Part shown: positions 7,761 through 35,286 of the stretch, piece after piece
Position numbering within the stretch: the first letter of the stretch is position 1
How the letters are laid out: every line of letters begins with the position of its first letter
DNA from: Escherichia coli
GTDB lineage: Bacteria; Pseudomonadota; Gammaproteobacteria; Enterobacterales; Enterobacteriaceae
Assembly (NCBI RefSeq): GCF_013315695.1
Contig: NZ_CP054353.1
Length of the DNA stretch: 64,000 nt
Strand: one strand, 5' to 3'
Notes under the pieces: model-generated
The model's database searches: none
What the model saw: only the letters and a program-made list of their open reading frames with translations
What the model was told of the DNA's origin: nothing
Made by a program: the position numbers and the translations under genes

Positions 7761-7769
7761 ATAAAAAAA

Positions 7770-8097: not shown

Positions 8098-8140
8098 AAG
8101 AATGTTTGCATGTGTAGAACAGTGCGGGATTATAAATATA

Positions 8141-8711: not shown

Positions 8712-8767
8712 TTAATCTCTTACATATTGTATCTGGTGAAATTTATAATTTTCTGAAGCTGCCTGAA

Positions 8768-8898: not shown

Positions 8899-8903
8899 CC
8901 TGA

Positions 8904-8938
8904 CGCCACCACCCCACACAGATGACGGGGTGGTGGCG
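8904..8938. terminator. Strong GC hairpin between the U fragment and the tail-fibre operon
   Basis: CGCCACCACCCC-loop-GGGGTGGTGGCG perfect 12-bp stem; no clear U-run, so terminator function is uncertain. Confidence 0.35.
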
Positions 8939-8943
8939 TGATT

Positions 8944-9240: not shown

Positions 9241-9249
9241 TCCCTCCCT

Positions 9250-11306: not shown

Positions 11307-12079
11307 GAAAAAATCCTCAAAGAATCCTCCAGAAATACCACTGATGCTGTCAGGGTTCCGGTTGTGGCGGTCAGTTGCATCACCGCCTGTGGCTCCACGG
11401 TCACCGCATCATCGCCCGTAACCTGTAATCCCATGACAATCCCCGCATCGACAGATACCGACGGTGTCGGCGGGTAAATGGTGAGCATGTCGCCGTCAAA
11501 GAAAGCCGGAGATGCCCGGAACACCGAAACAGTCTCAACACCGGCAGAAGCGGCTGGCCAGATTGTTGTTTCACTGCCGTCGTGCATGCCGGAAAACACA
11601 CGTGCGACTCCCTGCGTATCCAGCATAATGTTCAGCGAGGCAAGGTGGCGGCTGACCGGACGGGCATCGTCGATCAGTCGTGTCAGCTCGGAGTACGTTT
11701 CCTCTGTGATACCCGCGTCCTGCACGCCAATATCAATGCGGAACGTGCCGCGCGGGTCGCCGTTCTGCCACCACTCCGTCACGTTAATGACATAGCCAAA
11801 GGGTTCAACCACACGCCTGATGGCGCTGATGGTTCCCTTATGGCGGTGGATTGCCCAGGCATCACGGATCACCTGGCGCTTTGTTTCTTCCGTCCAGTCA
11901 CGATCCCACCTGTCCACGGACAGCGCCCACGCCAGATAAGGCAGCAGGGCTGCCGGGCAGGTGTCAGGATCCCAGAGCTGGTTAAGGCTGACAGGTAATG
12001 CTGACAACCGGGCGGTTCCCCGCTCCACGCAGCGCATGAAATCGCTGGCTGAAGGGGGGAGAAGTGACGGTTCACTCAT
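11303..12079 (-). CDS. I: Baseplate protein I
   Basis: DTCPAALLPYLAWALSVDRWDRDWTE motif typical of P2 gpI; start placed at MSEPSLLPP. Confidence 0.8.
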   Translation of the reverse strand: MSEPSLLPPSASDFMRCVERGTARLSALPVSLNQLWDPDTCPAALLPYLAWALSVDRWDRDWTEETKRQVIRDAWAIHRHKGTISAIRRVVEPFGYVINVTEWWQNGDPRGTFRIDIGVQDAGITEETYSELTRLIDDARPVSRHLASLNIMLDTQGVARVFSGMHDGSETTIWPAASAGVETVSVFRASPAFFDGDMLTIYPPTPSVSVDAGIVMGLQVTGDDAVTVEPQAVMQLTATTGTLTASVVFLEDSLRIFS

Positions 12080-12968
12080 TGGTTCCCCCTGTGCTGACCG
12101 TGAACGATGTGCAGTACGCTGACTGCACATCACTGATAACAATATTCTGTGCGGGGCTGGTCAGTTCCACGCGCTGAACGCCCTGAACATGCAGTGCGGC
12201 CATGATGGCGGAGAGCGCGACATCGCGACCGATTTTGCCCTGTTCGGCAAGCCAGGTTTCCAGATTGTTTCTGGCGGCATTCAGGATGGGTTCCGACTCC
12301 GGCCCCGGATAAAAGTAAAGCCGGGCATCAATCTGATACCGTATGATTTCTGCGCTCTGCACCGTCAGACGGTCACCGACCGGGCGAACGTCTTCGGCAT
12401 TCAGCGCATTTCTGACCGTTGTCAGGAGTTCTTCGGTCGCCGTGCCGTCGCCTTCTGTGGACAACACTGTCACCACCACTTCCGCCGGTGCGGGGCTGGT
12501 TGCGCGCGCGTCCGCCACCTGACCGCTGGCACTGCGGGCAAAATATTCATACGCCCCGGTGGGACCGGCCACGCTGAGGCCATCAAATGCAGACTGCGCA
12601 CGCAGCCGCAGGGCGGAGTCGCTTTCCATGACGGCCTCCGTGGTGTCCATGGCCGGTGTGATGACCAGCCGCGCGGTGTTCATGTTGGCAGCGAGGTTGT
12701 CCAGGTCATCACCTGTGGAATGGCTCAGCATACAGGCCGCTGCGCCCTCATTAATGCGCTGGCGAAGCAGCAGTTCACGCAGCGCGAAAGCCTGGGCAAT
12801 GACCGTGAGCGGTTCGGACTCCAACGCCATGGCTGACCGGATGGCAGCCTGCTGTGTCTGTGGAAATGACGTAATGATGTCTTCTTTCACTTCCGCTAGG
12901 ATGACTTCAAAATCCGGCGTTTCAATAATCTGTGGTGTCGGCAGTTCCGACAGGTCAACGGCTGGCAT
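12072..12968 (-). CDS. J: Baseplate protein J
   Basis: 298-aa ORF at the P2 J position with matching size; overlaps W and I ends as in P2. Confidence 0.85.
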   Translation of the reverse strand: MPAVDLSELPTPQIIETPDFEVILAEVKEDIITSFPQTQQAAIRSAMALESEPLTVIAQAFALRELLLRQRINEGAAACMLSHSTGDDLDNLAANMNTARLVITPAMDTTEAVMESDSALRLRAQSAFDGLSVAGPTGAYEYFARSASGQVADARATSPAPAEVVVTVLSTEGDGTATEELLTTVRNALNAEDVRPVGDRLTVQSAEIIRYQIDARLYFYPGPESEPILNAARNNLETWLAEQGKIGRDVALSAIMAALHVQGVQRVELTSPAQNIVISDVQSAYCTSFTVSTGGTNE

Positions 12969-13320
12969 TGTCGCTCCTGAGTGTCAGTGTGTTCTGTACG
13001 GTTTCCAGGCTTTCTGTCAGTGTGCCGGTGAGGGTGATAACGGCTTTTCCGCCCGCCTCCCACTGAATGTCAACGGCATTCAGGGCGATGCGTGGCTCCC
13101 ACTGTGTCAGGGCAATCACCACGGCGCTCATGCACTGAAGGCGCGTGGTGGCATTCATCGGTGCATCCAGCAAATCCGGCAGCAGGCTGCCGTATTCCCG
13201 GCGCATCACCCGGCTGGCGAGCGGTGTTAACAGAATATCCCTCACGCTGTTCCACAGATGGTCCGTGTCGCTGAGCGTGCCGGTGGCCTCGGGGTTCATC
13301 CCCAGAAAACGGGCACTCAC
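12955..13320 (-). CDS. W: Baseplate protein W
   Basis: 121-aa ORF between V and J, size and position as P2 gpW. Confidence 0.8.
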   Translation of the reverse strand: MSARFLGMNPEATGTLSDTDHLWNSVRDILLTPLASRVMRREYGSLLPDLLDAPMNATTRLQCMSAVVIALTQWEPRIALNAVDIQWEAGGKAVITLTGTLTESLETVQNTLTLRSDNASR

Positions 13321-13898
13321 TGCGGGCCTCCTGTGCTGTCACCGCCGCTCTTCACGCCACTGTGTTTGTGCGTGTGCAGCGTCACACCGTTTGAGGTGAA
13401 ATCACCGCCGCTGTGCGAGATACTGCCACTCATGGTTCCGCCTTCTGTCACCTCAATCGTTGTCGTCTTCAGATGGTTTGTGCAGGTGACGGTGGGGGTA
13501 TCCAGCGTCACGCCTGTTCCGGCCTGAATGGTGGCAGTTTTGATTCCGCTGGCGCTCAGTGCGCCAGCGTCCGCATCGTAGCGGAACACCGCGCCGTCAG
13601 GCGCTGTAACCACGATTTCCGTCAGGCTGCTGCCGGGCGCCGGATGTTCGCTGCTCCAGAGACTGCCGATGACGGACGCGGTCGCGGGGTCGCCACCGAT
13701 GCAGGCAATCATGACCTGTTCGCCCACGGCAGGCGGCAGCCAGACGCTGAACGCGCCCGCGCGTGGTGTGTTCCAGCGCAGCCAGTCGGTTTCCAGCTCT
13801 CCGCTGCGCACGCGAACGCGCCACGTTGTTTCGTCCACGGCAAAAATCACGCCCGTGCGGATGATATTTGCAAGCAGTCGCATGATTTCCGCTGTCAT
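13317..13898 (-). CDS. V: Baseplate spike protein V
   Basis: 193-aa ORF at the P2 V position, Gly/Thr/Ser-rich C-terminus. Confidence 0.8.
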   Translation of the reverse strand: MTAEIMRLLANIIRTGVIFAVDETTWRVRVRSGELETDWLRWNTPRAGAFSVWLPPAVGEQVMIACIGGDPATASVIGSLWSSEHPAPGSSLTEIVVTAPDGAVFRYDADAGALSASGIKTATIQAGTGVTLDTPTVTCTNHLKTTTIEVTEGGTMSGSISHSGGDFTSNGVTLHTHKHSGVKSGGDSTGGPQ

Positions 13899-14533
13899 CG
13901 TGCTGCACTCCCCAGGGAACGGATAATCGCGTCACGCATCCGGCGTTCGTCGGCTGCGGTCACACCCAGCAGTTCACGCACCGGGTAGGTGGTCATCACG
14001 CCCGGTGTCACCTCGTCGCGTAACCCCGCCTGATGCACGCGGGCAATCCGCGCAGCCAGGCCATCAAAGCCCACCACAGCGCCTTCCGCATCTGAGCGCA
14101 TTTTTAACCAGCGATATGTGCGAAGACGCGCGAACATCGGCGTGCTTTTCTTGCTGGTCTGGCGGGCAGACATGGACGATACAGCGAGGTATCGTTCAAT
14201 ATCATCGCGGTAAAACGTCCTCAGTGCGCCGCCACGGTCAGGGTCGCGCCCGATGATGGCGCGGCCTTTCCGGTAACGTTTGTGCCCCCACTGGCGCAGC
14301 GTGCGGACCTCGCCGTTCCAGACAAACTTCACCTCCCGGCGGGTGTGCATTACCTGCTGTTTTCGCGCCGGATACGGCGAACCGTCTGCGTTCTTCTGCG
14401 TACGGATACGCGCCTGCTGGCTCTGGCGCAGCGCCTGCCCGACAGCCCTCGCCGTGCGTGCACGTCCGGCGGTGGAAAGTCCGTTCAGGATGTCGCGGAA
14501 AACCGCGTCCGGGTCATGCGTCGTCGTGTTCAT
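13895..14533 (-). CDS. S: Tail completion protein S
   Basis: Position between R and V; start uncertain (ORF is longer than P2 gpS). Confidence 0.7.
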   Translation of the reverse strand: MNTTTHDPDAVFRDILNGLSTAGRARTARAVGQALRQSQQARIRTQKNADGSPYPARKQQVMHTRREVKFVWNGEVRTLRQWGHKRYRKGRAIIGRDPDRGGALRTFYRDDIERYLAVSSMSARQTSKKSTPMFARLRTYRWLKMRSDAEGAVVGFDGLAARIARVHQAGLRDEVTPGVMTTYPVRELLGVTAADERRMRDAIIRSLGSAAR

Positions 14534-14996
14534 CCGTCAAATCCTTAAAGGTCACATCCTCAACAATCAGCTCTCCCCAGGCTCCTGTCAGTGCGGCAGG
14601 CGGGCGGGGTTCCGGCAGGTGCACCGGATACAGTTCCCCCTGTTCATTGCGACAGACTTTCACGCGCTCGCGCACGGGAATTTCCAGTAACAGGTCGGTG
14701 CTGTCGTCGTCATTGACGGCAACGGAAAACTTAACGTCCTTGTTTTTCTCCGGGTTGAGCAGCAAATCCGGCTGGTTGTGCATGAGCCAGACAATCAGCG
14801 GCAGCATCAGCTCGTCGATGTGTCCCGGAAAATCCATGACGAAGGCCACGAGCGTGTAACGGTAGACAAACGTCGGGGTTTCACCCGTGGTCTCAATACT
14901 TCCGCTTTCTGCAAACACGGTGAGTTTTTCCGGATTCGCGCGACACCACCGGGATGAGGCGGTGAGGGCTTCGCGCAGACGGTTCATTTTCAGCAT
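14514..14996 (-). CDS. R: Tail completion protein R
   Basis: 160-aa ORF at the P2 R position, size as P2 gpR. Confidence 0.7.
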   Translation of the reverse strand: MLKMNRLREALTASSRWCRANPEKLTVFAESGSIETTGETPTFVYRYTLVAFVMDFPGHIDELMLPLIVWLMHNQPDLLLNPEKNKDVKFSVAVNDDDSTDLLLEIPVRERVKVCRNEQGELYPVHLPEPRPPAALTGAWGELIVEDVTFKDLTDEHDDA

Positions 14997-15005
14997 GACT
15001 TCTCC

Positions 15006-15289
15006 TTACGGTCGCATCCGGCGTTGTTGTTCGGTTGCTTTAATGGCTGCCTTGTCAGCGTTGCAGCTCTCCAGTGCGTCCAGCAGCCGGTCACTCCAGA
15101 CGGCCAGTCCGCCCCACGTCAGCGGACGGGGCAGGGACGGCACCGGCGTTGGCTGTGTCAGACTTTCCGGCAGCGGTGCGTGCTGCGTCTGAGTGACCAC
15201 GACGGGGCGCGGCGCGCTGTTGCAGGCGGTCAGCAACAGCGGCAGGCACAGCAGCAGCCGCGCACGGATTTTCCCGGAGTGTGTTGCGT
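15006..15289 (-). CDS. lysC: o-spanin (LysC/Rz1-like outer-membrane lipoprotein), embedded out of frame in lysB
   Basis: GTG start with GGGAGA RBS; VKRYATHSGKIRARLLLCLPLLLTAC signal peptide with lipobox LTAC; Pro-rich mature part. Confidence 0.65.
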
Positions 15290-15537
15290 ATCTCTTCACG
15301 GCGTTTTTCTCCCTCCTGATTCCGGTGCTGCTCTGCGGCGCGGACCTGCGCCAGCAGGTCGCTGATGCCCCGGAGTTCCGCATGAAGTGCATCCACGGCG
15401 GCATTTGTTCCCGCCAGCGCCTGTTCGTGATATTCCCGGCGCGCCCGTTCATGCCCTGCCTGCCAGGCCAGACGCAGTGACACCAGATACAGCGCCCCCG
15501 AAAACAGGGCGACGACGGCGGCGGTGGTCAGCCTCAT
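15091..15537 (-). CDS. lysB: i-spanin (LysB/Rz-like)
   Basis: N-terminal TM segment MRLTTAAVVALFSGALYLVSL then charged coiled-coil-like region; overlaps the endolysin end and contains lysC. Confidence 0.7.
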   Translation of the reverse strand: MRLTTAAVVALFSGALYLVSLRLAWQAGHERARREYHEQALAGTNAAVDALHAELRGISDLLAQVRAAEQHRNQEGEKRREEIRNTLRENPCAAAAVPAAVADRLQQRAAPRRGHSDAARTAAGKSDTANAGAVPAPSADVGRTGRLE

Positions 15538-16076
15538 TTCTGTTTCTCCACATCCCGCAGACACCAGGCGCGAAAATCGCTGCGGCGGTTAACCAGTCCC
15601 TGACTGCGCTTCCCGCCTGCATTCACAAAATCAGTGAGGCGGGCACACATCCGCGCCCAGTTATGCGCCTGTGCCTGTTTCCAGATGGTGGTGCGCTGGC
15701 GCTTACCGTTGCGGTCCCTGAACCACATCAGACCGGAGCACCCCAGATTGAAGGCTGCATCCGTCATCGCCTCGAAGGCCGACTGCGGCATGGCTGCCCC
15801 CTGAAAATTCTGGTTAATACAGCTCTCCGCCCGCTGCATGTCATTCACCCAGCGACGGGCCACCTCCTGCTCGCTGTACAGGTGTTTCTGTACGTTCCCC
15901 GTGGAGCCGCAGCCCACGGTGGCAACACCCGCGATGTCCGTGTAGGGTGTGGCGCGGCAGTCTTCCCACGTGGCAATTTTTATCTGTGCCTCCTGTGAGG
16001 TGCGCAGTGCTTCAGGAGCCAGCGAGACACCCAGCGCCACAATCACGGCGGCGGCATATCGCTTAATGTTTTTCAT
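15534..16076 (-). CDS. K: Endolysin, lysozyme-like with N-terminal signal-anchor (SAR-type) segment
   Basis: MKNIKRYAAAVIVALGVSLAP hydrophobic N-terminus followed by ...ATPYTDIAGVATVGCGSTG... lysozyme-like motifs; start placed at the third in-frame ATG. Confidence 0.75.
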   Translation of the reverse strand: MKNIKRYAAAVIVALGVSLAPEALRTSQEAQIKIATWEDCRATPYTDIAGVATVGCGSTGNVQKHLYSEQEVARRWVNDMQRAESCINQNFQGAAMPQSAFEAMTDAAFNLGCSGLMWFRDRNGKRQRTTIWKQAQAHNWARMCARLTDFVNAGGKRSQGLVNRRSDFRAWCLRDVEKQK

Positions 16077-16356
16077 CGTTATCCCGTTGCAGTGCGGCAA
16101 GCGCCCGTTGTTCACTTTCATGAAGCCCGCGCGTTCCGGCCTGTGCCAGAATCTGTGCAATCAGCGCATTGCGGCGGACCTGCGCACGCTCCATGCGGCG
16201 ACGGTGAAGCCAGCCCTGAAAGAGTGAAAGCGCACCCAGCAGCAGCCCGGCCAGCGCGATTTTTTCGCTGATGGTCATCGCGCCAATCGTGACCGCAGAG
16301 ACGGAGGCGGCGAAGGCGATGTGGTCGTAAATACTGCGAAAAAAACCTAATCCCAT
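16063..16356 (-). CDS. Y: Holin candidate
   Basis: Two hydrophobic segments then charged C-terminus (HRRRMERAQVRRN), directly upstream of the endolysin. Confidence 0.6.
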   Translation of the reverse strand: MGLGFFRSIYDHIAFAASVSAVTIGAMTISEKIALAGLLLGALSLFQGWLHRRRMERAQVRRNALIAQILAQAGTRGLHESEQRALAALQRDNDEKH

Positions 16357-16553
16357 AACTGCACCGTCTCCCGTGTTTTTTTCTCTTCCTGCTCCGGTAA
16401 TTCCACTTCCTGTCCGGCCTCCAGAAAAATCTGTCCGCACAGCCCCGGATTGGCGGCCAGCACCTTTTCGGTCACGCCCTGCGTTGTGCCGTAGTGCCGG
16501 AAGCACAGCAGGTCAACGGTGTCGTCCTGTAATGCCTTCACCTTCATCAGCAC
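16347..16553 (-). CDS. X: Tail protein X
   Basis: 68-aa ORF at the P2 X position between L and the holin. Confidence 0.7.
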   Translation of the reverse strand: MLMKVKALQDDTVDLLCFRHYGTTQGVTEKVLAANPGLCGQIFLEAGQEVELPEQEEKKTRETVQLWD

Positions 16554-17041
16554 AGCCTCGCAAAGATGCGCGGTGCGCCCTGAATATCGGCAATGGCCCA
16601 GCGCACGTCGCGCCAGAGGTCACCGGTCTGGGCTTCCAGTGCGTCCGCTTTCCGGTCGCCCTGTTCGGTGGTGTCCACATCGCGCACGCGCTCCAGTATC
16701 AGGGCGCGGGTGGCGGCATACACCGCAAGACGGAAGCGGTGCACGTTGACGCTTTCGCCGTTCACGCGGGAAGCCGGAACGTCCGCCAGCGTGCGGTATC
16801 CGTCATTCATCTGCTGCGTCTGCCAGTTGCGCAGCTCACCGGTGACGTGTGCCACGGCTTCGGTTGCCGCGTGCATCAGGCGCGACGTGGTGGTGCGACC
16901 GGGCAGGCGCACGGCAAGACGCAGCGCGCGCAGTTCTGTCTCCGGCCAGAAGTCGTCCGTGGTGATGCGTGCATCACCGTCGTCCGTGTCCGCGACATCC
17001 TCCGTCGCGGCAGTGATACCGGGTTTTGCAATCATGCTCAT
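16547..17041 (-). CDS. L: Head completion protein L
   Basis: 164-aa ORF at the P2 L position. Confidence 0.8.
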   Translation of the reverse strand: MSMIAKPGITAATEDVADTDDGDARITTDDFWPETELRALRLAVRLPGRTTTSRLMHAATEAVAHVTGELRNWQTQQMNDGYRTLADVPASRVNGESVNVHRFRLAVYAATRALILERVRDVDTTEQGDRKADALEAQTGDLWRDVRWAIADIQGAPRIFARLC

Positions 17042-17160
17042 GACGAGCCTCCGTTAAAAAGTCAGGCGGTGGGCGAACGGTCAGAAGGTCGCGGAGTTAA
17101 AAAACCAGGTGACCGTTCGCGCCGCCTGTCGCCGGGGCGAAGTCGGTATGCGTGAGAGTC

Positions 17161-17958
17161 TCACGCGGATTTTTTGCTTTTCCGTGTGGCAGTGGCTTTT
17201 GTGGCGCTCTTTTTGCCTGCCTTTTTCGTCACGGTTTTCGCGGTACTTTTGCCTTCCGCGTTGTTCTCCGCACCGTCGGTACTGGTCAGCTTTTTCACTG
17301 CACGGGACAGCGTGGCAATCTCGCGCTTCACGCCCGCGTTCGGGTTCAGGTGCATCGCTTCGCGCAGCAGTTTCAATGATGAAGCCATACTGTCCGCATC
17401 GGTCAGACCACGGCGGGAAAAGGCGCACGCCTTGCAGAGTTTGGCGCGGACCTCGTCCGGCATGTCCCGACCGGCGATAATTTCCTGTAGCGTGTCCAGC
17501 GGGGCGATGTATCCGGACAAATCCGCGTCCTGGTCAGTGCCTGCCAGCGTCAGCACCGGGTTACAGATTTCCTCTGTCAGCAGCGTGGCGGCATCGCGCC
17601 CGAAGCTGTCCGGTGTGCTGAGGTTATGGCGTACCACGTACTCACCGATGCGCAGCGCCAGCGGCAAATCACCGCAGTCAACGGCCCAGACCATGAGGGT
17701 GACTATCACCTCATCCTGGCGTCCGCTGTCGCTCTCGAGCGTGCCGTCAATCCAGCCGGAAAAATCCGGCAGCAGCGTCTTTTTCAGTTCCGCTTTCGCT
17801 GCCTTTGACTGAATGCCTTTCAGTCGTGCCTGTGCCAGTCGCAGGCGATGCAGGATTTGTTCGTGAGCCGTGCGCACCGTCTGTGACTGACTGTCATCGG
17901 TCAGTCCGGCGCGTTGTGCCATCGTGCGCTGAAAATGCGCCTGTGCCGGTGTCAGCAT
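17161..17958 (-). CDS. M: Terminase small (endonuclease) subunit M
   Basis: 265-aa ORF at the P2 M position with Lys/Ala-rich C-terminal tail. Confidence 0.8.
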   Translation of the reverse strand: MLTPAQAHFQRTMAQRAGLTDDSQSQTVRTAHEQILHRLRLAQARLKGIQSKAAKAELKKTLLPDFSGWIDGTLESDSGRQDEVIVTLMVWAVDCGDLPLALRIGEYVVRHNLSTPDSFGRDAATLLTEEICNPVLTLAGTDQDADLSGYIAPLDTLQEIIAGRDMPDEVRAKLCKACAFSRRGLTDADSMASSLKLLREAMHLNPNAGVKREIATLSRAVKKLTSTDGAENNAEGKSTAKTVTKKAGKKSATKATATRKSKKSA

Positions 17959-18007
17959 TGTTCTCTCCTCTTACGGGCGGTCAGCGCCCGCCCGTGGTTC
18001 AGGTAAA

Positions 18008-25905: not shown

Positions 25906-28713
25906 GTTTCCACTGGTCAGGCTACCCCGCAGCAGGTCTGCTTTGCGGCGGGCGCGTTCAGTGGTTTCACTGATTCTCTGTGCGTGCTCTGCGTCACGGA
26001 TGGCGTGCAGCATGTCAGAAAGCACGGTAACAGGGGTTTTCATGGTGTTCTGGTCCTGCTGAAGTGTGGATGCCAGGCGTGCGGCGGCTTCGGGGTCTGA
26101 TGCCCCCAGCTGTTCCAGATAGCTGGCGACCGGGTTATGGCGGATCTCCGTGCTGCTTACGCCGTGATTACGGCTCAGGCGCTGCCAGAGCTGCGTGATT
26201 CGGCTGTCCGGGCGGGTATCCGGTTTGCGTACAATTTCAAATCCCTGCGGTGCAATGATGCTGCCGTCAACGTACAGACTGCCGCCCCGTAACAGGTGCT
26301 GCATCTGCTGTTCACCAATATGCAGGCCGAGAGATTCAGCAGACTCCCGCCATTCTTTTGCGAGTAACTCGTGGTTATCAGGCAAAGGCTGTGGCTGTTT
26401 GCGGCTCTGTGTCCAGCTCTGCATTTCATAACTGCTGTTTTTGGCCTGTTTGTCACGCAGCGAACGCATCAGCGCCCGGCGTTCGTGCCGTTTCAGTGAG
26501 CGCATCCATTCATTCACTTCAATTTCAATGCCGTCAGGAAGCTGCGGCCACTGTGCTGGCCGTTCTTCCGGCTGTTCTGTCCCGTTGTTGTCCGTTTCCT
26601 GTACACGGGGACAGTTATTGCCACGAGTCCAAGGGGCGGCAGGGCCGCCCTGAAGGTCAAAACCATTTTCGCGGGCGCTGTCTTCCGCTTCCGGTTTGCG
26701 TCTTACCAGCTTCCAGTTATCCGGATGCGTGCATACGCGGGAAGACTCCCCAATGAGCGGCGACCAGATCCCGTAAATCTGTACGCTCTGTTCACCGTAA
26801 TCGTTCAGCTCATCTGCGAGGTCGTAGGCGGTGCGAATCAGGTAGTCTTTGCGTGGAACAAGTACGCCACCCTGTTTCTCAATGTAGGTGGCAAAACATC
26901 CGGCATCAGCGGCAGCGAGTACCGCGTCCATTGCGTCATCCTTCAGCCGTTGCGGGCCTTCCGGGTTGCGTGCCATCTGGCTGGCAAGGCGGCGCAGTTC
27001 ACGCCACACCTGACGGGAGGGGATACCAAAGAACTGGAACTGGCGGACCCGGTGAAGGCGCGCCCAGCCGATGGCGCGTTCCACGCTCTCGGCCATTGAT
27101 TTTCCGGTTTCGTGGTCAACGCGTGGCTTGCCCGTTTTCGGGTCGATGCCATCCACGGCGCGGCTGTCCAGGTTCTTTCCGATGTAGGTGGCGATGTAGC
27201 TGGTTGGTGTGCCTTTTGAGCCGTCTACGTACTCCGCCTTAAAACGCGGAGTTATGTCATCGCCCAGCTCGTGGCGGTCTTCCTGAATGGCAATATCGCA
27301 GACGTGGGACACGATGGTTTCAATCTCGTCCTGATGTGCAAAGACCATCATATGCCAGTGCACAGTGCCGTCATGGTGAGGCTCCACCGTGCGGATGCCA
27401 TACCAGCGCAGACCGTCGCGGTTCAGTTTTTTGCGGACCGCCGCAAAAAACGTGTTAACCAGGTAATCGCTGGAGTCGCGCATGGTGGCCCCGTTCCATT
27501 TGGGATTCGGATGACCGTTCTCCGTTGTTGCGTGGTATTTTGACGGGCAGGTGACAGTCAGAAACACCGCTCTGTCGCCACGGGCTTCGGCCAGAAGTTC
27601 CAGTCCCTTCATGGTGGCCATCATTTCTGCCTTACGGTGAACCGGGTTACTTACTCCCGCGTAATACACTGTCTCGAGATCAATCGTGAACCCGTCTTCG
27701 TTTTCCAGCATGAAACTTTTCAGGAAATCGCGTGTTTTCTCGCGCTGTGCGCGAAACTCGCTTAACGCGTCCTGGCTCAGATAGGGTGATGTTTTTCTGG
27801 AAACCAGACAGGCGGCGCGGAGTTGTTCTTCTCTCCACTCGCAACGTAACAGCCACAGTTTGCGTTTCCACCATTCCGCACAGGTCAGGCGAAGGATTGC
27901 GCCCGGCAGCAGCTCCGTGTCCGGTTCGTTCCTCCGGTCTTTGTCTGTTGTCAGTGCGTCATAATGTGGAGGCATGGCGTGCAGGTGTAACGCCATGCGG
28001 GCCAGCATCTGATACGCCTTCAGCGTTACATCCATGGTCAGTTCGCCATCAGTCGCACCAAAGCCATCGCAGAGTTTTTCGAAGGTGCTGCTGAACATCG
28101 CCGCCGTCATGGTGGCCAGCGTCTGTATCTGGTGTTTGTTGAGCTGCGGCAGGTAAAGCAAATCGTCCAGGCGTTCGCGTCCGGCAAGGGAGCGATAACC
28201 CGGTGTCAGCCAGCGGTGATCGGTGCGGTCCAGGCGTTCGAATATTTTGCGCAGGGTTCCGCGCGCGTAGCGTTCAGCCTGCCAGCTCTTTTTGCCTTTC
28301 TGGCGATCGGCTTCCTGTTTTTTGCGCAGGAAAGAGAGGTGGCGGCTCAGAGGTTCACGCAGATAAACGGGAAGCACCTTCAGTGTGGCAAAAGCACGGG
28401 CCACCGGGTCTTGTTCTGTTGCCTGACGCTTGCTGATGATGCTTTGTGCCAGCTTTTCACGCTGTCCGGCTTCCTCAAGGGATGCCATGAGTTTTTTACC
28501 CACGGTGGATTGTGCGAAAAAGGCTTCCTCCTTCGCTTCCTGTTCTTCCAGAGCCTTTTTGTCTGCCTCAAGGTAGTAACGGATGGCGCGTTGTAGGTCG
28601 GTTTCAGTTTCCTGCCTGTGCTCCGTAAATCTGGCCGGATCAATGGCTGGCCGTGGTTCATTCCAGCTCCATGCAAACTCACTCATGGCTGGTATCCCGT
28701 CACGCGCTGCCAC
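25840..28713 (-). CDS. A: Rolling-circle replication initiator A
   Basis: Contains HUH-like VHWHMMVF and a YIATYIGKN Tyr-containing motif; position as P2 gene A; true start may be the ATG at 28686. Confidence 0.85.
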   Translation of the reverse strand: MAARDGIPAMSEFAWSWNEPRPAIDPARFTEHRQETETDLQRAIRYYLEADKKALEEQEAKEEAFFAQSTVGKKLMASLEEAGQREKLAQSIISKRQATEQDPVARAFATLKVLPVYLREPLSRHLSFLRKKQEADRQKGKKSWQAERYARGTLRKIFERLDRTDHRWLTPGYRSLAGRERLDDLLYLPQLNKHQIQTLATMTAAMFSSTFEKLCDGFGATDGELTMDVTLKAYQMLARMALHLHAMPPHYDALTTDKDRRNEPDTELLPGAILRLTCAEWWKRKLWLLRCEWREEQLRAACLVSRKTSPYLSQDALSEFRAQREKTRDFLKSFMLENEDGFTIDLETVYYAGVSNPVHRKAEMMATMKGLELLAEARGDRAVFLTVTCPSKYHATTENGHPNPKWNGATMRDSSDYLVNTFFAAVRKKLNRDGLRWYGIRTVEPHHDGTVHWHMMVFAHQDEIETIVSHVCDIAIQEDRHELGDDITPRFKAEYVDGSKGTPTSYIATYIGKNLDSRAVDGIDPKTGKPRVDHETGKSMAESVERAIGWARLHRVRQFQFFGIPSRQVWRELRRLASQMARNPEGPQRLKDDAMDAVLAAADAGCFATYIEKQGGVLVPRKDYLIRTAYDLADELNDYGEQSVQIYGIWSPLIGESSRVCTHPDNWKLVRRKPEAEDSARENGFDLQGGPAAPWTRGNNCPRVQETDNNGTEQPEERPAQWPQLPDGIEIEVNEWMRSLKRHERRALMRSLRDKQAKNSSYEMQSWTQSRKQPQPLPDNHELLAKEWRESAESLGLHIGEQQMQHLLRGGSLYVDGSIIAPQGFEIVRKPDTRPDSRITQLWQRLSRNHGVSSTEIRHNPVASYLEQLGASDPEAAARLASTLQQDQNTMKTPVTVLSDMLHAIRDAEHAQRISETTERARRKADLLRGSLTSGNKKQTETGFTNPVNEQKTCRDI

Positions 28714-29072
28714 TCCTGCGAGAAGAGGGCAGAAAGGCGGTTAAATTCAGCGGTGTATTCACTCAGCGAGGCACACCCGCCAGCAGTGCGATGCGCCAGC
28801 ATTGCCGCAAATACGGAGGCCGGGGAGTCGTAATACGCCAGCAGTGATTCTCCGTGTGGTGTCAGGCAATGCAACGCCAGCCCGTGTGGTGTGAAGTCCA
28901 CGCGGTAGCAGTCGTCTACTGTGAAATAAAGGGTGTCTGCATTTTCCGGTTTTGTGGTGCGTGCTCTGTTGTCACGACCACGGATGTAGAGATCAAATAA
29001 TCCCTGAAGAACGGGAGCCAGACGGGTGTCCTGTGTGCGCACCCATCTTGTGAAGTCATGAGCGTCAATCAT
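28683..29072 (-). CDS. Hypothetical early protein
   Basis: 129-aa ORF directly upstream of and slightly overlapping A. Confidence 0.5.
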   Translation of the reverse strand: MIDAHDFTRWVRTQDTRLAPVLQGLFDLYIRGRDNRARTTKPENADTLYFTVDDCYRVDFTPHGLALHCLTPHGESLLAYYDSPASVFAAMLAHRTAGGCASLSEYTAEFNRLSALFSQEWQRVTGYQP

Positions 29073-29144
29073 GCTGCAATTCTCTTTACTACAGATGTGC
29101 GAAGGCCTCCCGCCGCAAGGTGCAGGAAAGGCCCGGAACAGGAA

Positions 29145-29375
29145 TTAATGGAGTTTGTTTTGCTGCTGGAAGAGTTGTTGCAGCTCGCGCAGATCATCCG
29201 CCAGATAGCTGAAAACAGAGGCGGAATAGATGTTCGATAGCGCGTGGCTGCGCTCATGCAGCATATTGATGTGCATGATTTGCGCGACGCGTGATGCGCG
29301 GAAAAGTCTACGGTTGATTTCAGTCTGGATGTGACGACGCGCAGCGTATGCGCGCTGTTGTTTGCGGTTTGCCAT
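29145..29375 (-). CDS. Hypothetical basic 76-aa early protein
   Basis: ATG 29375 preceded by AAGAGG RBS; MANRKQQRAYAARRH... Confidence 0.55.
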   Translation of the reverse strand: MANRKQQRAYAARRHIQTEINRRLFRASRVAQIMHINMLHERSHALSNIYSASVFSYLADDLRELQQLFQQQNKLH

Positions 29376-29697
29376 GGTGTGGCCTCTTTGCTCGGTGATA
29401 GAAATAGCTCACCATCCAGAGTTGAGAATCTCGGGGTGGCGAGACGTACAGGGTTCTCAACACCGGAGAGCAAAGAATCCGGCCCGACCGAAGTCGGCCC
29501 CGTACGTCCCGCCATAATTCTGACGCGAAAAAGACGTGGCAATACAGTACGCACAAAAAAACCGCTGGCGCGGTTATGCGCTTTGCTCTGTATCGGGTTG
29601 AGAATCCCGGCACCCGTTTTATGAGGTGCAGCGGAAATGTAACCTGACCGATTGCGGCATGGCAAGCGGTTTTTTTGTGTGTGCATGTTCTGGTTTC

Positions 29698-29997
29698 TTA
29701 CTGGTTCAGAAAAAAATCAAAAACCTTGTCAATGCGTTGCAGCAGCTCTTGCTGTATTGCTTCCGGCGTTTCCGGTTCGCCGGGTGCCTCCAACGTCGCG
29801 CAGAAATCAGCGATTTCATGATGGAGTGTCAGGCGAATGGCAGGAGCCGTGGTTCTGGCGTGCTCCAGCTGATCCAGCAGTGCCAGCACAGCAGACGGCG
29901 AGAGCATTGCGCGAAATGCCAGTAATTTTTGAGGCGTTGCCATTCGTTGCAGGGCAAATGCCAGTTCGCGTAGCTTCTGGTGGTTGATGGTGCTCAT
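29698..29997 (-). CDS. Hypothetical early protein
   Basis: 99-aa ORF, stop overlaps the start of the downstream ORF. Confidence 0.55.
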   Translation of the reverse strand: MSTINHQKLRELAFALQRMATPQKLLAFRAMLSPSAVLALLDQLEHARTTAPAIRLTLHHEIADFCATLEAPGEPETPEAIQQELLQRIDKVFDFFLNQ

Positions 29998-30260
29998 GTT
30001 CTGGCTTCCTTCAGTAGCTGGTTAAACATGTGAGTAAGTGGATTGCTACACCCGAACGGCATCGGGTTTACGTGGTAAGAAGCCTGGCCTCCAGTTTTGC
30101 GAGCGCGACCACCTGTGCTGCGGTTTGTTCTGATGACTAAGCCGCCGCGCCAAAGTTGGCGTAACTCAGCATTAATGGCTGTGGTTGGAGTATTCAGTGC
30201 TGCGGCGATCTCTCCGCCGCTACAACCCGGATGAGTAGCGATGTAGTCCAGAATGGTCAT
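29994..30260 (-). CDS. Hypothetical early protein
   Basis: 88-aa ORF, overlapping start/stop with neighbours. Confidence 0.55.
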   Translation of the reverse strand: MTILDYIATHPGCSGGEIAAALNTPTTAINAELRQLWRGGLVIRTNRSTGGRARKTGGQASYHVNPMPFGCSNPLTHMFNQLLKEART

Positions 30261-30460
30261 CTGCGTGGCTCCTGTACCTGTCGGATAAGATTCACCCGCG
30301 CCACGTTGGTGGCGCAGAAGTAAGTGCCGTCAGTGAGGTAGATGTGGTGTGCATCCTTTTCCGAACGATGTTTGTCGATAGTGGTAATCAGGCGTTCGTC
30401 GACCTCGTATTCGCGCCCTCTGGAGGTAAAGCGAACGACGGGAAAATGCTTAATTGCCAT
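30257..30460 (-). CDS. Hypothetical early protein
   Basis: 67-aa ORF in the early operon. Confidence 0.5.
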   Translation of the reverse strand: MAIKHFPVVRFTSRGREYEVDERLITTIDKHRSEKDAHHIYLTDGTYFCATNVARVNLIRQVQEPRR

Positions 30461-30483
30461 TGCACCCCCTTTGTCCAGTAACC

Positions 30484-30894
30484 CTATGCGTTAAATACGG
30501 TGTGTCGGGCGTCATCAATGAATGCAACTTGAGAGCGCTCTATCAGGCGGAGATTTGTCAGAAGCGCTGATTCCCTTATGGGGTGAGGAGTGATCAGGTA
30601 TTTGTTCTGTAATCCGGCGATAATGGTGTATCGCTGTGGCTCCGAGCCAATAGTGTAAATAAGGCGTCCGGTGTCAGATAAATCCAGTCCGGTGACTGGT
30701 TTAGTTTTGAGAAGCGCAAGTTCCACACCCTGTTCTTCGATGATTTTGGCAGCTTCTGCCGTGACTTTTGCGACTATCATTGTGTGGGTTGCGACGTCCA
30801 TGTGAGCATTGGCCACGGCTTTTTTCGCTACTTCGCTTTCCATCTTTGAAATTTCTTTCAGTGCTCTGATGATACCTTCTTCTTTTGCGTGCAT
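30484..30894 (-). CDS. Hypothetical early protein
   Basis: 136-aa ORF with GGAG RBS. Confidence 0.55.
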   Translation of the reverse strand: MHAKEEGIIRALKEISKMESEVAKKAVANAHMDVATHTMIVAKVTAEAAKIIEEQGVELALLKTKPVTGLDLSDTGRLIYTIGSEPQRYTIIAGLQNKYLITPHPIRESALLTNLRLIERSQVAFIDDARHTVFNA

Positions 30895-30987
30895 TTTTGT
30901 ATCTCCGTTATTTGCGTGTGCGAATACCTCCGTTAATACGGATGGTTTTCACGTTTTCTTATTTAATTTGATGTTTTATTTGTATCG

Positions 30988-31101
30988 TTATTCATCAGAG
31001 AAAAAACGCTCGATCTTTTTCACTGAATTAATAATTCGCATAATCCCAATGGCGCAGGCCACCGAAATAATCAGAACAAGCCATGAGATAAATATACTCA
31101 T
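30988..31101 (-). CDS. Small 37-aa hydrophobic peptide (below the ORF track threshold)
   Basis: MSIFISWLVLIISVACAIGIMRIINSVKKIERFFSDE; ATG overlaps the stop of the upstream 80-aa ORF in an ATGA arrangement. Confidence 0.4.
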   Translation of the reverse strand: MSIFISWLVLIISVACAIGIMRIINSVKKIERFFSDE

Positions 31102-31340
31102 GCGATATTCCCCAGCTTATACGGTTCAATATGTTCTCCGCATTCTGCGGCACAGATCAGCTCGGAAAGTTCGTTAAGTGCATCCAGATCATCAGCGTAA
31201 AAAGCCACGTCATACAGACTCCGGATTGCCCTGGTCAATGAGTCACGGGCTGCACGTTCAGCATGAACGCCTGATGCACTTAAGCGAAAATAAAAACGCT
31301 CAAGTGCTTTGTTGATGAGTGTTTTATATTCTTTGTCCAT
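31098..31340 (-). CDS. Hypothetical early protein
   Basis: 80-aa ORF in the early operon. Confidence 0.55.
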   Translation of the reverse strand: MDKEYKTLINKALERFYFRLSASGVHAERAARDSLTRAIRSLYDVAFYADDLDALNELSELICAAECGEHIEPYKLGNIA

Positions 31341-31351
31341 TGCAACACCCT

Positions 31352-31639
31352 TTAATCTGCTTTCTGTATTTCAGCTTCTGAATCCATACAAATAATTTCG
31401 ATATAGGGTTCATCGCCATTAACTTGGCGTGCCTTTTCAGCTTCGCTAATGATTTCTCGTACGGTCTGGTACGGAAGTTCCACAAGCAGTCGCGTGCCGT
31501 TCAGATAGACGTAAGTGGCTTCGTCGGCTCCGTTTTTACCCGCCGGAGTCACTCCGTCAATAGCGGATGCACGTAATAACAGTTCACCGCGAAAATCAAT
31601 AAAACGGATAAATACACCTTGTGCATGGTCTTTGGTCAT
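31352..31639 (-). CDS. Hypothetical early protein
   Basis: Start placed at MTKDHAQGVF (internal ATG of track ORF 31352..31753). Confidence 0.5.
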   Translation of the reverse strand: MTKDHAQGVFIRFIDFRGELLLRASAIDGVTPAGKNGADEATYVYLNGTRLLVELPYQTVREIISEAEKARQVNGDEPYIEIICMDSEAEIQKAD

Positions 31640-31649
31640 AAAGCACCCG

Positions 31650-31988
31650 TTATAAATCAGCCTGTTTAATAAAACTTTGCCCGCGAAGCAGACGATCAAC
31701 CGTGCGAAGTGCTTCGTATAATGTGAAATCCTGCCCGAACTGATTGTCGCCACAGCTCAATGCAAAAATGCGGTTTCCGGTAAACGGATTGCGTGGGCAT
31801 TTGTGGATCACGATTCCAGCTTTCTCAATCAGCCAGGCGTGCTCGCCGATTTGTTTTACTGGGTAGCCATCCGGCGTTGCGTGTGTATCACTCAGGCTGT
31901 AGCGGATGTTGCTGCGTGATGCACTGGTAGTGAAACGGTTAGCGTGGCGTTCTGTTCCGGTACGAAAATTACGGCGTTGCTTCAGCAT
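31650..31988 (-). CDS. Hypothetical early protein
   Basis: 112-aa ORF, second gene of the early operon. Confidence 0.5.
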   Translation of the reverse strand: MLKQRRNFRTGTERHANRFTTSASRSNIRYSLSDTHATPDGYPVKQIGEHAWLIEKAGIVIHKCPRNPFTGNRIFALSCGDNQFGQDFTLYEALRTVDRLLRGQSFIKQADL

Positions 31989-32002
31989 AAAATGACACCT
32001 CG

Positions 32003-32281
32003 TTATTTTGTCATCTGCACGTATTTTTCTGCGCTCCTGATTGTTTTCAGGAAAAGAGCGAAGAGATTTACTGTGCGTCTTGAGTTCTTTTCATCCTGGT
32101 TGATGGGAATTGAACCTCTGTCAGCCTGTCTTTTCACTGTGTTAACAGCTTGGTTAGTACGCTTTGCGTAATCTTTCAGGCTTTCTTCAAGTACTGGTAA
32201 CCCATGCTCATCGCGGTAGGGATAGAACGCTGCTAAACGCTCAAAGTCTGCCTGTTCGTGTGTGTTCAGGACTTTTGCCAT
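32003..32281 (-). CDS. cox: Cox/Apl-like early regulator (first gene of early operon)
   Basis: Divergent from repressor C; internal segment YAKRTNQAVNTVKRQADRGSIP resembles the P2 Cox helix-turn-helix region. Confidence 0.5.
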   Translation of the reverse strand: MAKVLNTHEQADFERLAAFYPYRDEHGLPVLEESLKDYAKRTNQAVNTVKRQADRGSIPINQDEKNSRRTVNLFALFLKTIRSAEKYVQMTK

Positions 32282-32320
32282 GTGTGATAACCTGCGCTAT
32301 CTGTGGTTGTTTGTGATCTG

Positions 32321-32373
32321 GTGTACTTATAAGTACACCTTGTGCGCAAGCTTAGTGTACTTATAGGAACACT
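32321..32373. promoter_or_regulatory. Operator-like palindromes in the C/cox switch region
   Basis: GTGTACTTATAAGTACAC perfect 18-bp palindrome at 32321..32338 and related AGTGTACTTATAGGAACACT at 32354..32373, between divergent cox-like and C genes. Confidence 0.5.
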
Positions 32374-32377
32374 GTCA

Positions 32378-32686
32378 ATGCTTATCGGTGAAAAAATTAG
32401 AGTGATTCGTGAATCAGAGGATTTAACGCGCGAAGAATTTTGCGGCCTGATTGATGTGCCTATCGGCACTTTGCGTCGTTATGAAACGGGGCGGATTGAA
32501 AACATAGGGGGCGAAGTGCTTATCAAGATTGTTAATCACCCTCGCTTTTTTAAGTACATGAATTGGCTTATGACGGGAAAAACAAATGAGGCTGCTGGGC
32601 AGATCAGTCCGTCTCTCTCCCCTGATGGGCCAAAAAGCACATCGCCTTCTCAAAAACCCCGCAAGACTGGCACACAGCCCGGCTAA
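32378..32686 (+). CDS. C: Immunity repressor C
   Basis: MLIGEKIRVIRESEDLTREEF...GTLRRYETGR...HPRFFKYMNWLMTGK resembles P2 C repressor. Confidence 0.7.
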   Translation: MLIGEKIRVIRESEDLTREEFCGLIDVPIGTLRRYETGRIENIGGEVLIKIVNHPRFFKYMNWLMTGKTNEAAGQISPSLSPDGPKSTSPSQKPRKTGTQPG

Positions 32687-32735
32687 TCATGGAGCGCTGG
32701 GGGCATGGTGGTCTTGTAACGCTGGGGTTTCACGA

Positions 32736-33710
32736 ATGAGCATAAAATCAATTCCGGGAGGATATCTTCTTGACATGCGCCCGGAGGGGCGTAAAGGCAA
32801 ACGCATTCGTAAAAAATTTAAAACGAAATCGGATGCAGTTTTATATGAGCGGTGGGTGCTGGCGCAACAGCATAACAATGAGTGGAAAGGAAACTCCATT
32901 GATCGCCGTCCGCTGTCAGTGCTTATTGACTTGTGGTGGAAATACCACGGTCAGCTAATGAAGTCAGGGCATAACACGCGCCTTAAATTGCTGCGCTTGA
33001 GTGAGGCAATGGATGACCCGTGCGTGCATAAACTTAATACAACGATGCTCACCGAGCTACGTGTGTCCAGGATAGAGCAGGGGATACAGCCCAGCACCAT
33101 AAATCGAGAGATTGGGGCGTTAAGCGCGATGTTTACCGCACTCATCTCATCCGGCCATTTTCTTAACGATAACCCCGTTCAAGGCCTTAAAGGAATGAAG
33201 GTTAACGAGCGCGAAATGGGATATCTGAGTAAGTCTGAATGTGTTCAGTTGCTGGATGCACTGGCTGAAAATCCCGATGAACGGCTGGCTGTCGAAATCC
33301 TTCTGTCGACCGGGGCGCGATGGGGCGAGGTAGCGGCACTGGAGCAGCGCCGTGTTCTTCATTGTCGAATCACTTTTTCAAAAACGAAGAACAGCAAAAA
33401 CCGTACCGTTCCTATTTCTGAAAGCCTGTTTGAAAAGATCAAAAAACGGGGCGGGAAACTGGTGTTTCCGACGCTGGATTATCCATTGGTTCGCGATGTC
33501 ATCAAAACGGTCGCACCTGATGTTCCTGACGGCCAGGCTGTTCATGCGCTGCGCCACACCTTCGCCAGTCATTTCATGATGAACGGCGGCAATATTCTGA
33601 CGCTCCAGAAAATTCTGGGGCACGCAAAGATTCAGACAACGATGATTTATGCCCATCTTGCGCCGGATTACTTGCAGGATGCGGTGAGATTTAATCCTAT
33701 TGCTGGGTAA
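32736..33710 (+). CDS. int: Tyrosine integrase
   Basis: ...LSTGARWGEVAAL...HALRHTFASHFMMNGGNILTLQKILGHAKIQTTMIYAHLAPDYLQDAV closely resembles P2 Int. Confidence 0.9.
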   Translation: MSIKSIPGGYLLDMRPEGRKGKRIRKKFKTKSDAVLYERWVLAQQHNNEWKGNSIDRRPLSVLIDLWWKYHGQLMKSGHNTRLKLLRLSEAMDDPCVHKLNTTMLTELRVSRIEQGIQPSTINREIGALSAMFTALISSGHFLNDNPVQGLKGMKVNEREMGYLSKSECVQLLDALAENPDERLAVEILLSTGARWGEVAALEQRRVLHCRITFSKTKNSKNRTVPISESLFEKIKKRGGKLVFPTLDYPLVRDVIKTVAPDVPDGQAVHALRHTFASHFMMNGGNILTLQKILGHAKIQTTMIYAHLAPDYLQDAVRFNPIAG

Positions 33711-33720
33711 GGAGGATGTT

Positions 33721-34116
33721 GTGGAAAAAACAGTTAATAGCGATTTGCATTTAGGTCAGTACTGGAGAATAGACATTGTCTGCGATCCAGAACTTCGAGA
33801 TGAGGTTGAGCAATATTTTTCTCGACACGATGTTGGTTTTAGCAAAATTGAAGTTTTTTCCGTCGAAAATCCATATAAACTTGCTCTGTTCTTTGATTTC
33901 GCGAAGAAGGGTGTGGAGGTTGCAAAAGCCATTATGGGACTCTTAGACCGAAATGATATTGAAATAACGATGTATCGTGCTACGGACAGTAGCCCGCAGT
34001 CTGTAAAAAGCATCAAATTGCGTAAGTCTGAAGACGTAGAGAAATGTAAAGATTTGCTTAGTACGTGTGTCGCAATTGGCGTTCAACGAAATAAGGAAAA
34101 AGAGGGGAGCGAATGA
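33721..34116 (+). CDS. AT-rich cargo gene between int and the host junction, unknown function
   Basis: In-frame GTG 33721 five bp after AAGGAGGA RBS; 131-aa acidic protein; no family recognised. Confidence 0.55.
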   Translation: MEKTVNSDLHLGQYWRIDIVCDPELRDEVEQYFSRHDVGFSKIEVFSVENPYKLALFFDFAKKGVEVAKAIMGLLDRNDIEITMYRATDSSPQSVKSIKLRKSEDVEKCKDLLSTCVAIGVQRNKEKEGSE

Positions 34117-34178
34117 TCCACAAAGTGACCACATCCCTGTTATTTGTTGTGGTTGGCTGTGTTTTTGTGTGTCTGTAA
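34113..34178 (+). CDS. 21-aa hydrophobic peptide translationally coupled to the preceding gene
   Basis: ATG overlaps upstream stop in an ATGA arrangement; AGAGGGGAG RBS inside the upstream gene's last codons; MIHKVTTSLLFVVVGCVFVCL. Confidence 0.35.
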   Translation: MIHKVTTSLLFVVVGCVFVCL

Positions 34179-34230
34179 GTCTTTGATAATTATCTAACTT
34201 ATTGATTTTTGTTTGTGTTTATGGCCGCTC

Positions 34231-34258
34231 TGCGGCCTTTTTTCTTTTCACTGTCGAA
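34231..34258 (+). terminator. Rho-independent terminator
   Basis: GGCCGC-TCT-GCGGCC hairpin followed by TTTTTTCTTTT. Confidence 0.6.
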
Positions 34259-34305
34259 GAGTCACCGTAAAATCAACGCCATGACACTTCAGCAGAACGG
34301 ATACC

Positions 34306-35286
34306 ATGCTGACACTTGCCCGCCAACAACAGCGACAAAATATTCGCTGGTTATTATGCCTGTCAGTTTTGATGCTGCTGGCGCTTCTCTTAAGCCTTTG
34401 CGCCGGTGAACAATGGATCTCGCCAGGTGACTGGTTTACTCCTCGTGGCGAACTGTTCGTCTGGCAAATTCGCCTGCCACGTACGCTGGCTGTATTGCTG
34501 GTTGGTGCGGCGCTGGCTATATCCGGCGCTGTAATGCAGGCGTTGTTCGAAAATCCTCTGGCAGAACCTGGACTACTTGGCGTCTCTAACGGCGCAGGCG
34601 TGGGGCTTATCGCCGCGGTATTGCTTGGGCAAGGGCAACTCCCCAACTGGGCGCTGGGGCTGTGTGCGATTGCTGGCGCGCTTATCATCACTTTAATACT
34701 CTTACGTTTCGCCCGTCGTCATCTTTCGACCAGTCGGTTATTGCTGGCTGGCGTTGCATTAGGGATTATCTGTAGCGCACTAATGACGTGGGCTATCTAC
34801 TTTTCCACCTCTGTTGATTTACGTCAGCTGATGTACTGGATGATGGGCGGTTTTGGCGGCGTAGACTGGCGGCAAAGCTGGCTGATGCTGGCATTGATCC
34901 CCGTGTTGTTGTGGATCTGTTGTCAGTCCAGGCCAATGAATATGTTAGCACTTGGCGAGATCTCGGCGCGGCAACTGGGTTTACCCCTGTGGTTCTGGCG
35001 CAATGTGTTGGTGGCAGCGACCGGCTGGATGGTTGGCGTCAGTGTGGCGCTGGCGGGTGCTATCGGCTTTATTGGTCTGGTGATCCCACATATTCTCCGG
35101 CTGTGTGGTTTAACCGATCATCGCGTATTACTTCCCGGCTGCGCGTTGGCAGGGGCGAGCGCATTGCTGCTGGCCGATATTGTAGCGCGCCTGGCATTAG
35201 CTGCCGCAGAGCTGCCTATTGGCGTGGTCACCGCAACGTTGGGTGCGCCGGTGTTTATCTGGTTATTGTTAAAAGCAGGACGTTAG
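34306..35286 (+). CDS. btuC: Vitamin B12 ABC transporter permease
   Basis: [29 protein letters not shown]... recognised as E. coli BtuC. Confidence 0.95.

Follow-up and report, generated by a model that had tools for sequence, protein, structure and literature searches.

The right junction of a P2-family prophage between ihfA and btuC of Escherichia coli: an attR site with the predicted ihfA terminator as core

Integration of a phage between ihfA and btuC of Escherichia coli has been recorded before. PP_SE11-4, a 35.8-kb P2-like prophage of E. coli SE11, was listed as lying 'between btuC and ihfA' and as being flanked by a 25-nt duplication (Oshima et al. 2008, DNA Res 15:375, PMC2608844). 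The entry is a table row, and core, arms and the identity of the terminator are not dissected there (PMC2608844). For the attachment sites of P2-type phages, the consensus of the arm-type integrase sites has been defined as tgTGGaCa (Nilsson et al., PMC3448106). The 3'UTR of ihfA is also known as the source of a small RNA, STnc540, which is bound by ProQ in Salmonella (PMC6315103, PMC2515195).

The locus described here is part of a 64-kb stretch of E. coli DNA (64,000 nucleotides of contig NZ_CP054353.1), referred to as the window. With PP_SE11-4 it shares the integration site and, as checked in the SE11 genome, the identical 25-nt sequence. In both, ogr and hok belong to one end and int and cargo to the other. 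The differences concern the cargo, a module of two genes in SE11 and one ORF of 131 aa in the window, and the interior modules. With P2 and Wphi the locus has in common a heterobivalent tyrosine integrase with an arm-binding N-terminal domain, direct repeats of the tgTGGaCa type (PMC3448106), IHF consensus sites in the arm, the gene order ogr - att - int - C - cox, and a core that is identical in phage and host. It differs from them in the core itself, in the host site, in the presence of two IHF consensus sites in the arm, and in the integrase, which is 48% identical to the Int proteins of P2 and Wphi. In Wphi, moreover, int abuts the att region, whereas an extra cargo gene lies in between in the window. 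Phages like P88 (Xuanwuvirus, Peduoviridae; NC_049391.1) resemble the prophage in having cargo close to int, ParM/ParR-like genes that follow the replication gene, and a hok-type gene beside ogr, the latter being seen in the relatives of the window prophage. Similarity to deposited phages at the DNA level is low; for P88 itself, megablast matched about 360 nt of gene D only, at about 74% identity. Its integrase is absent from the closest integrase matches, and its att specificity presumably differs. The integration site is therefore already known from SE11, and the junction is a routine prophage-host junction, which is now resolved to the nucleotide. No description of the core as the ihfA terminator, of the anatomy of the arm, or of a secondary site was found in the searchable literature.

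The interval 34117..34305 had been flagged in an earlier note, based on the letters of the sequence, as a junction at which the integration site could not be resolved. The gene assignments in that note proved correct. The gene for the permease of the vitamin B12 ABC transporter, btuC, does begin at 34306 and is an intact ORF of 326 aa (34306..35286, + strand), and NC_013361.1 contains the identical sequence under the name btuC. The position of ihfA before btuC in K-12 was confirmed in the K-12 derivative BW25113 and in other prophage-free genomes, where ihfA is located directly upstream of btuC with a spacer of 100 bp. As stated in the note, an IhfA-like frame is absent from 34117..34305, and tblastn with IhfA yielded no match at E<=10 in the entire 64-kb window. 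The insertion that had been suspected in the ihfA-btuC neighbourhood could be placed between these two genes, with the right end of the prophage inside the flagged interval. We are nearly certain that 34117..34305 contains the attR site of a P2-family temperate phage, which arose when the tyrosine integrase of this phage joined attP to a bacterial site of 25 nt, the predicted rho-independent terminator of ihfA.

The position of the boundary was determined with three probes in 5426 complete E. coli genomes. A 601-nt probe spanning the flagged interval matched all genomes but one, in most cases from 34223 rightwards only. An empty-site probe of 451 nt, reaching from the 3' end of ihfA to the 5' end of btuC, was unbroken in 5120 genomes and split at one identical base in about 305. 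The third probe (34117..34420), in which arm, core and btuC are joined, was contiguous in 303. Comparison of the latter two numbers indicates that essentially all occupied sites carry the same phage arm. Alignment to prophage-free sequence had been proposed as a check; with the 5120 empty-site genomes, host homology begins exactly at 34223. The same boundary was also detected in 52 IMG/VR contigs, and its recurrence in hundreds of genomes and in these contigs is far beyond chance. To the right of the core, 34248..34305 (+ strand) is native ihfA-btuC intergenic DNA, the btuC leader, which equals the empty site and corresponds to the right half of the STnc540 model. To the left, 34117..34222 is DNA of phage origin. 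The earlier note had named the finding of native host sequence throughout the region, with the prophage ending elsewhere, as its refutation, and such an end could be sought further left, for example at the stop codon of the integrase gene or of the cargo ORF. This applies to 34223..34305, which is identical to the empty sites, but to this part only. The remaining 106 nt, 34117..34222, lack a counterpart in the 5120 empty-site genomes, occur only in genomes with a related prophage (303 of 5426), and bear integrase arm motifs and IHF sites, so that an entirely native interval is next to impossible.

A core could be assigned by a three-way alignment of the empty site of strain 675SK2, attL of the O26:H11 strain 11368, and the window, the O26 genome being 100% identical to the window across 33900..34500. 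The three sequences have a common block of 25 nt, GGCCGCTCTGCGGCCTTTTTTCTTT, at 34223..34247 (+ strand). It is identical in attB, attL and attR, and its flanks differ on the appropriate sides. The caution in the earlier note that the att core cannot be called from one junction was justified, since the empty site, attL of O26 and the SE11 genome were needed to define the 25 nt. The direct repeat that had been suggested as a second check is indeed present at both prophage ends in the relatives. In O26:H11 11368, the prophage has these 25 nt on either side, and in SE11 they are found at 1928706-1928730 and 1964508-1964532, where they constitute the longest exact repeat common to both junction zones. 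One IMG/VR contig (L048) also contains both junctions with the same 25 nt at each end. The window harbors a single copy at 34223..34247 and no second one. A repeat family with members at 643, 17165 and 34232 was rejected as core copies, since its similarity of 82-88% over 17 nt is a chance likeness of T-rich sequences.

That the left flank is off-window had been noted before and is evident from the genes: the window starts inside ogr and does not include ihfA. In P2-type phages, ogr is the late activator gene adjoining att. In the window, a gene for an ogr/delta-type late activator (1..215, - strand) is cut by the window start, leaving residues 1-71 of about 86. It was identified by tblastn with the Ogr protein of the O26 prophage (63% identity, E=1e-29); the match runs off the left end, and the window starts about 45 nt before the ogr stop codon. 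In O26 11368, the core is located 17 nt past the ihfA stop codon; next come the ogr-side arm, a hok gene, and ogr. By analogy with these relatives, in which the 25-nt repeat is seen at both ends, attL and ihfA should lie a few hundred bases beyond the left end of the window. A core common to attP and attB that is duplicated upon insertion, as in P2-type modules, is thus documented by O26 and SE11, and the window supplies attR only. A free phage with an intact attP was not detected: a megablast search with the segment from int through cargo to the arm against 50,697 phage records (INPHARED) produced one weak match from Klebsiella. The 59 IMG/VR contigs with the core all represent attL, attR or a hybrid at a secondary site, with no arm-core-arm arrangement and no circular attP contig among them. 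The attP sequence is consequently a reconstruction and not an observed sequence.

To define the arm adjoining the core, the 160 nt that precede the core were compared among 56 loci, in an alignment of 26 distinct sequences. The conserved part sets in abruptly with GATCCACAAAG, at a distance of about 108 nt from the core and irrespective of the upstream gene or cargo. The int-proximal arm of the phage attachment site therefore extends from 34115 to 34222. At its outer end, a putative arm-type integrase site, TGTGGATC (34115..34122, - strand), fits the consensus tgTGGaCa and is invariant in the alignment. A second putative site, TGTGGTCA (34126..34133, - strand), is a direct repeat of the first at a distance of 11 nt, and a third motif of similar type, TGTGGTTG (34148..34155, + strand), is inverted relative to these two. 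In total, three TGTGG[AT][CT] motifs were observed in the arm versus 0.078 expected. The ogr-side arm is available from the relatives and contains TGTCCACA, the exact reverse complement of the consensus, and in addition TTCCAC. Arm repeats typical of a P2-type module are accordingly present on both sides, in the window for the int-side arm and in the relatives for the ogr-side arm. Closer to the core, two IHF sites are predicted, TATCAAAGACTTA at 34176..34188 and AATCAATAAGTTA at 34195..34207, both on the - strand and both perfect matches to the consensus WATCAANNNNTTR. Only four perfect matches to this consensus exist in the whole 64-kb window, two of them within the arm. Among the relatives, the consensus positions of the IHF sites are invariant and the N positions variable. 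Core and arm of the window correspond to the population consensus.

The genes expected for integration are located next to this arm. A tyrosine integrase of 324 aa is encoded at 32736..33710 (+ strand), reading toward the att site. It contains the arm-binding domain Int_N (PF24624; E=1.5e-28, residues 56-155) and the catalytic domain Phage_integrase (PF00589; E=7.9e-20), with the motifs ARWGE...HALRHT...GH...TTMIYAH visible. The best match among deposited phage records shows 56% identity, and across 52 IMG/VR loci with the same att site the integrases are at least 97.8% identical. Such divergence from other integrases would fit an att specificity of its own within the P2 family. Upstream, a gene for a C-type immunity repressor with a helix-turn-helix (32375..32686, + strand; Pfam HTH_3 and HTH_31; phrog_147, transcriptional regulator, E=3e-30) opens the C-int operon. 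Divergent from it, a candidate for a Cox-like excisionase/repressor (32003..32281, - strand) occupies the position of cox in Wphi. Its matches are phrog_11533 and, weakly, phrog_575 ('Cox-like excisionase and repressor', E=1.1e-07), and it would be the putative directionality factor. The layout of arm, integrase and Cox appears to be that of a standard P2-type module, and from this layout we infer the binding events. The N-terminal domain of the integrase would bind the TGTGG(A/T)(C/T) repeats of the arm, IHF would bend the arm at the two consensus sites, and the core-binding and catalytic domains would act on the palindromic hairpin GGCCGC-TCT-GCGGCC. Strand exchange would occur inside the first 20 nt of the core, and excision would use Int together with the Cox-like protein.

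Judged by sequence, the att core and the rho-independent terminator of ihfA are one and the same element. At the empty site, RNA folding predicts a stem of 11 bp, AAAAAGGCCGC/GCGGCCUUUUU, of -16.7 kcal/mol (z = -5.3), which is followed by a U tract. At attR, the terminator scan and the RNA folds reveal a copy of this terminator at 34223..34237 (+ strand), a hairpin of six G-C pairs with the 3-nt loop UCU, followed by TTTTTTCTTT. A G+C-rich hairpin and a T tract, the hallmarks of a rho-independent terminator, are thus both present; the z-score of the fold is -2.7 at attR versus -5.3 for the native one. The 6-bp G-C stem and the T tract retained at attR are now located 3' of the C-int-cargo operon. 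At attL, the ihfA terminator remains whole because the phage brings the identical right half with its own copy of the core. A promoter-like site for btuC, TTTTCA and TAAAAT with a 17-nt spacer (34245..34273, + strand), was predicted by a promoter scan. It lies on the host side, is identical to the empty-site sequence, and shares with the core only the final 3 nt of the latter. We infer that neither ihfA nor btuCED loses its signals by the insertion; no host gene would be damaged, ihfA keeping its terminator and btuCED the promoter-like site.

The insertion also affects the region covered by the Rfam model of STnc540 (RF02082), for which the sRNA work was done in Salmonella and not in E. coli. 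The empty ihfA-btuC spacer scored 67.4 bits with this model (L003 1425..1583), and the att core coincides with the terminator hairpin of the model. The insertion splits this region. The left part, which bears the sRNA, is found at attL of O26 with 42.9 bits (L002 16586..16730), where the 3' hairpin of the RNA itself is intact. What is left in the window starts, in the model, with the terminator hairpin; with 22.5 bits for 34182..34305 it falls below the gathering cut-off of 38 bits, and this match is regarded as a leftover part of the native spacer. A match to the Rfam family Histone3 (18.5 bits) was likewise dismissed, being merely the hairpin read on the opposite strand.

Additional information on the recombination came from a secondary site. 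In two IMG/VR contigs (L047 and L057) and in ETEC1738, the left neighbour of the core is a lambdoid prophage instead of ihfA. The unoccupied lambdoid site, available from BCE049 (L064 2856..2875), reads aaaccataaaGGCCGCTCTGCGGCCTTTTTcatgtt and matches 20 of the 25 core positions. It is a terminator between lysis/moron genes and the gene for the small terminase subunit. In ETEC1738, a sister P2-like prophage resides in this lambdoid terminator, a prophage within a prophage. Its left junction (L065; also seen in L047) consists of the full 25 nt and the ogr-side arm, its right junction (L066 6884..6865) of the int-side arm, 20 nt and catgtt. These hybrid junctions are the reciprocal products expected of strand exchange inside the shared 20 nt, that is, the hairpin and five T, and support such an exchange. 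They therefore also support an integrase-mediated, sequence-directed insertion, and show that the last five positions of the core need not match.

The secondary insertion bears as well on the possibility that the junction in the window originated from homologous recombination between prophages or from a chromosomal rearrangement without participation of the integrase. Prophages of E. coli do recombine, and the prophage in the window is a mosaic: the best match among the 5426 complete genomes covers 81% of 10000..34500 with 94% identity. A junction of such origin is nevertheless extremely unlikely. The boundary is identical to the nucleotide in the 303 genomes and 52 IMG/VR contigs despite diverse interiors and cargo, the element is bounded by the 25-nt direct repeat, the hybrid junctions at the secondary site are exactly reciprocal, and the flanking host genes, compared with empty sites, are colinear in both pheT-ihfA and btuCED. 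Integrase-mediated insertion into the ihfA terminator is accordingly the preferred reading. The ihfA terminator also includes the 20-mer in representatives of species of Escherichia and Citrobacter, as well as in the Enterobacteriaceae isolate RIT691, none of these sites being occupied. Matches of the 20-mer in other phyla were discarded as unrelated hairpins.

The body of the prophage occupies 1..34222 and belongs to the P2 family (P88/Xuanwuvirus-like) according to PHROG matches, the annotation of the O26 relative, and the gene order of P88 (NC_049391.1). PHROG matches include tail protein D, sheath, tape measure, U, tail fibre, and the replication nickase gpA. The genes for sheath, tube, E, tape measure and U (1492..7760, + strand) are oriented opposite to D and ogr (268..1566, - strand) and to the tail-fibre genes H and G (9250..11306, - strand). 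An inversion of the sheath-to-U block relative to P2/Wphi was considered and rejected, since the same strand arrangement is the normal order in the P88-like Xuanwuvirus NC_049391.1 and is therefore a lineage trait. In the segment between U and the tail-fibre assembly gene (7760..9250), no ORF with a PHROG match was found. At the corresponding position, P88 and SE11 carry a DNA invertase and alternative tail-fibre segments, and the segment in the window may be degenerate.

A segment without recognizable genes raises the question of whether the junction is a fossil, left by a defective prophage that no longer excises, so that the att site is without current function. Other observations point in the same direction: the phage collection contains no matching free phage, the relatives include a 12-kb remnant with both cores (L048), and the annotations of O26 and SE11 give gpD as truncated. 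Set against this are the long open frames maintained in the window for int, the Cox-like protein, repressor, gpA, terminase, portal, capsid, sheath, tape measure, D and tail fibre, as well as a core and an arm that are identical to the population consensus. On balance, a fossil site is considered rather unlikely.

With the boundary at 34223, the annotation question of where the prophage ends and host DNA resumes is settled. This site is occupied by a P2-family prophage in about 5.6% of the complete E. coli genomes. Since the site is recurrent, core (25 nt) and arm (108 nt) can serve as markers for prophage boundary calling and typing. Beyond the published table row, the gains are the recognition of the core as the predicted ihfA terminator, the narrowing of the probable crossover to 20 nt, and the variable cargo slot. 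They are modest, and the understanding of P2-type integration is unchanged.

The cargo slot comprises the sequence from the int stop codon to the arm (33711..34116 in the window; IMG/VR loci L007-L063) and is exchangeable. In the window, it contains one ORF of 131 aa (33721..34116, + strand), which belongs to phrog_14142 (unknown function; E=1e-69) and gave no match in Pfam, PADLOC, NCBIfam or PDB. Slot lengths in the 52 IMG/VR loci are 407, 689, about 825, 941, about 972, about 1048, 1060 and 1075 nt, eight classes behind nearly identical integrases. Most of the other slots encode a zinc-ribbon-like protein and a coiled-coil protein with a C-terminal membrane helix, and the stop codon of every cargo lies directly at the arm. 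The 12-kb element L048 (IMG/VR 3300014970_000032), in which the cores of the two att junctions are 12,068 nt apart, has int and the 131-aa cargo ORF in common with the window and is apparently what deletion has left of a prophage of this type.

The choice of the site could be functional rather than incidental. The core would act both as terminator of the C-int-cargo operon and as 3' end of the ihfA mRNA, the source of STnc540 in Salmonella, and a lysogen would therefore produce a second transcript with the same hairpin. This transcript could tie the expression of int and cargo to RNA-level control of IHF, and the interval between int and arm might be an undescribed exchangeable cargo slot of this P2-like lineage, possibly for exclusion or defence genes. 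If so, the expression of int and cargo would be linked to a host factor that the integrase presumably needs. This proposal is speculative, and we consider it improbable.

A number of further features were observed in the interior of the prophage. In the interval that separates the replication gene A from the portal gene, an ORF of 268 aa (23450..24256, + strand) matches the PADLOC candidate defence family PDC-M04A (E=2.6e-35) and also phrog_3732, of unknown function; a ParM-like partition protein (phrog_691) is encoded in the same region (24804..25763, - strand). An hxsDBCA cluster (His-Xaa-Ser radical-SAM) is located between D and ogr in O26 11368 (L002 12125..15522) and in ETEC1738 (L065 4488 onwards); the window prophage is devoid of it, and D and ogr are adjacent (1..1566). 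A 76-nt copy of the 3' end of gene U (7636..7711) with 79% identity is located at 8766..8841. Finally, the tape-measure ORF contains three tandem repeats of 174 nt (6563..7140; 100%, 97% and 62% identity to the reference copy) and specifies 1166 aa, compared with genes of 2808 nt (about 935 aa) in the O26 and SE11 relatives and in P88.
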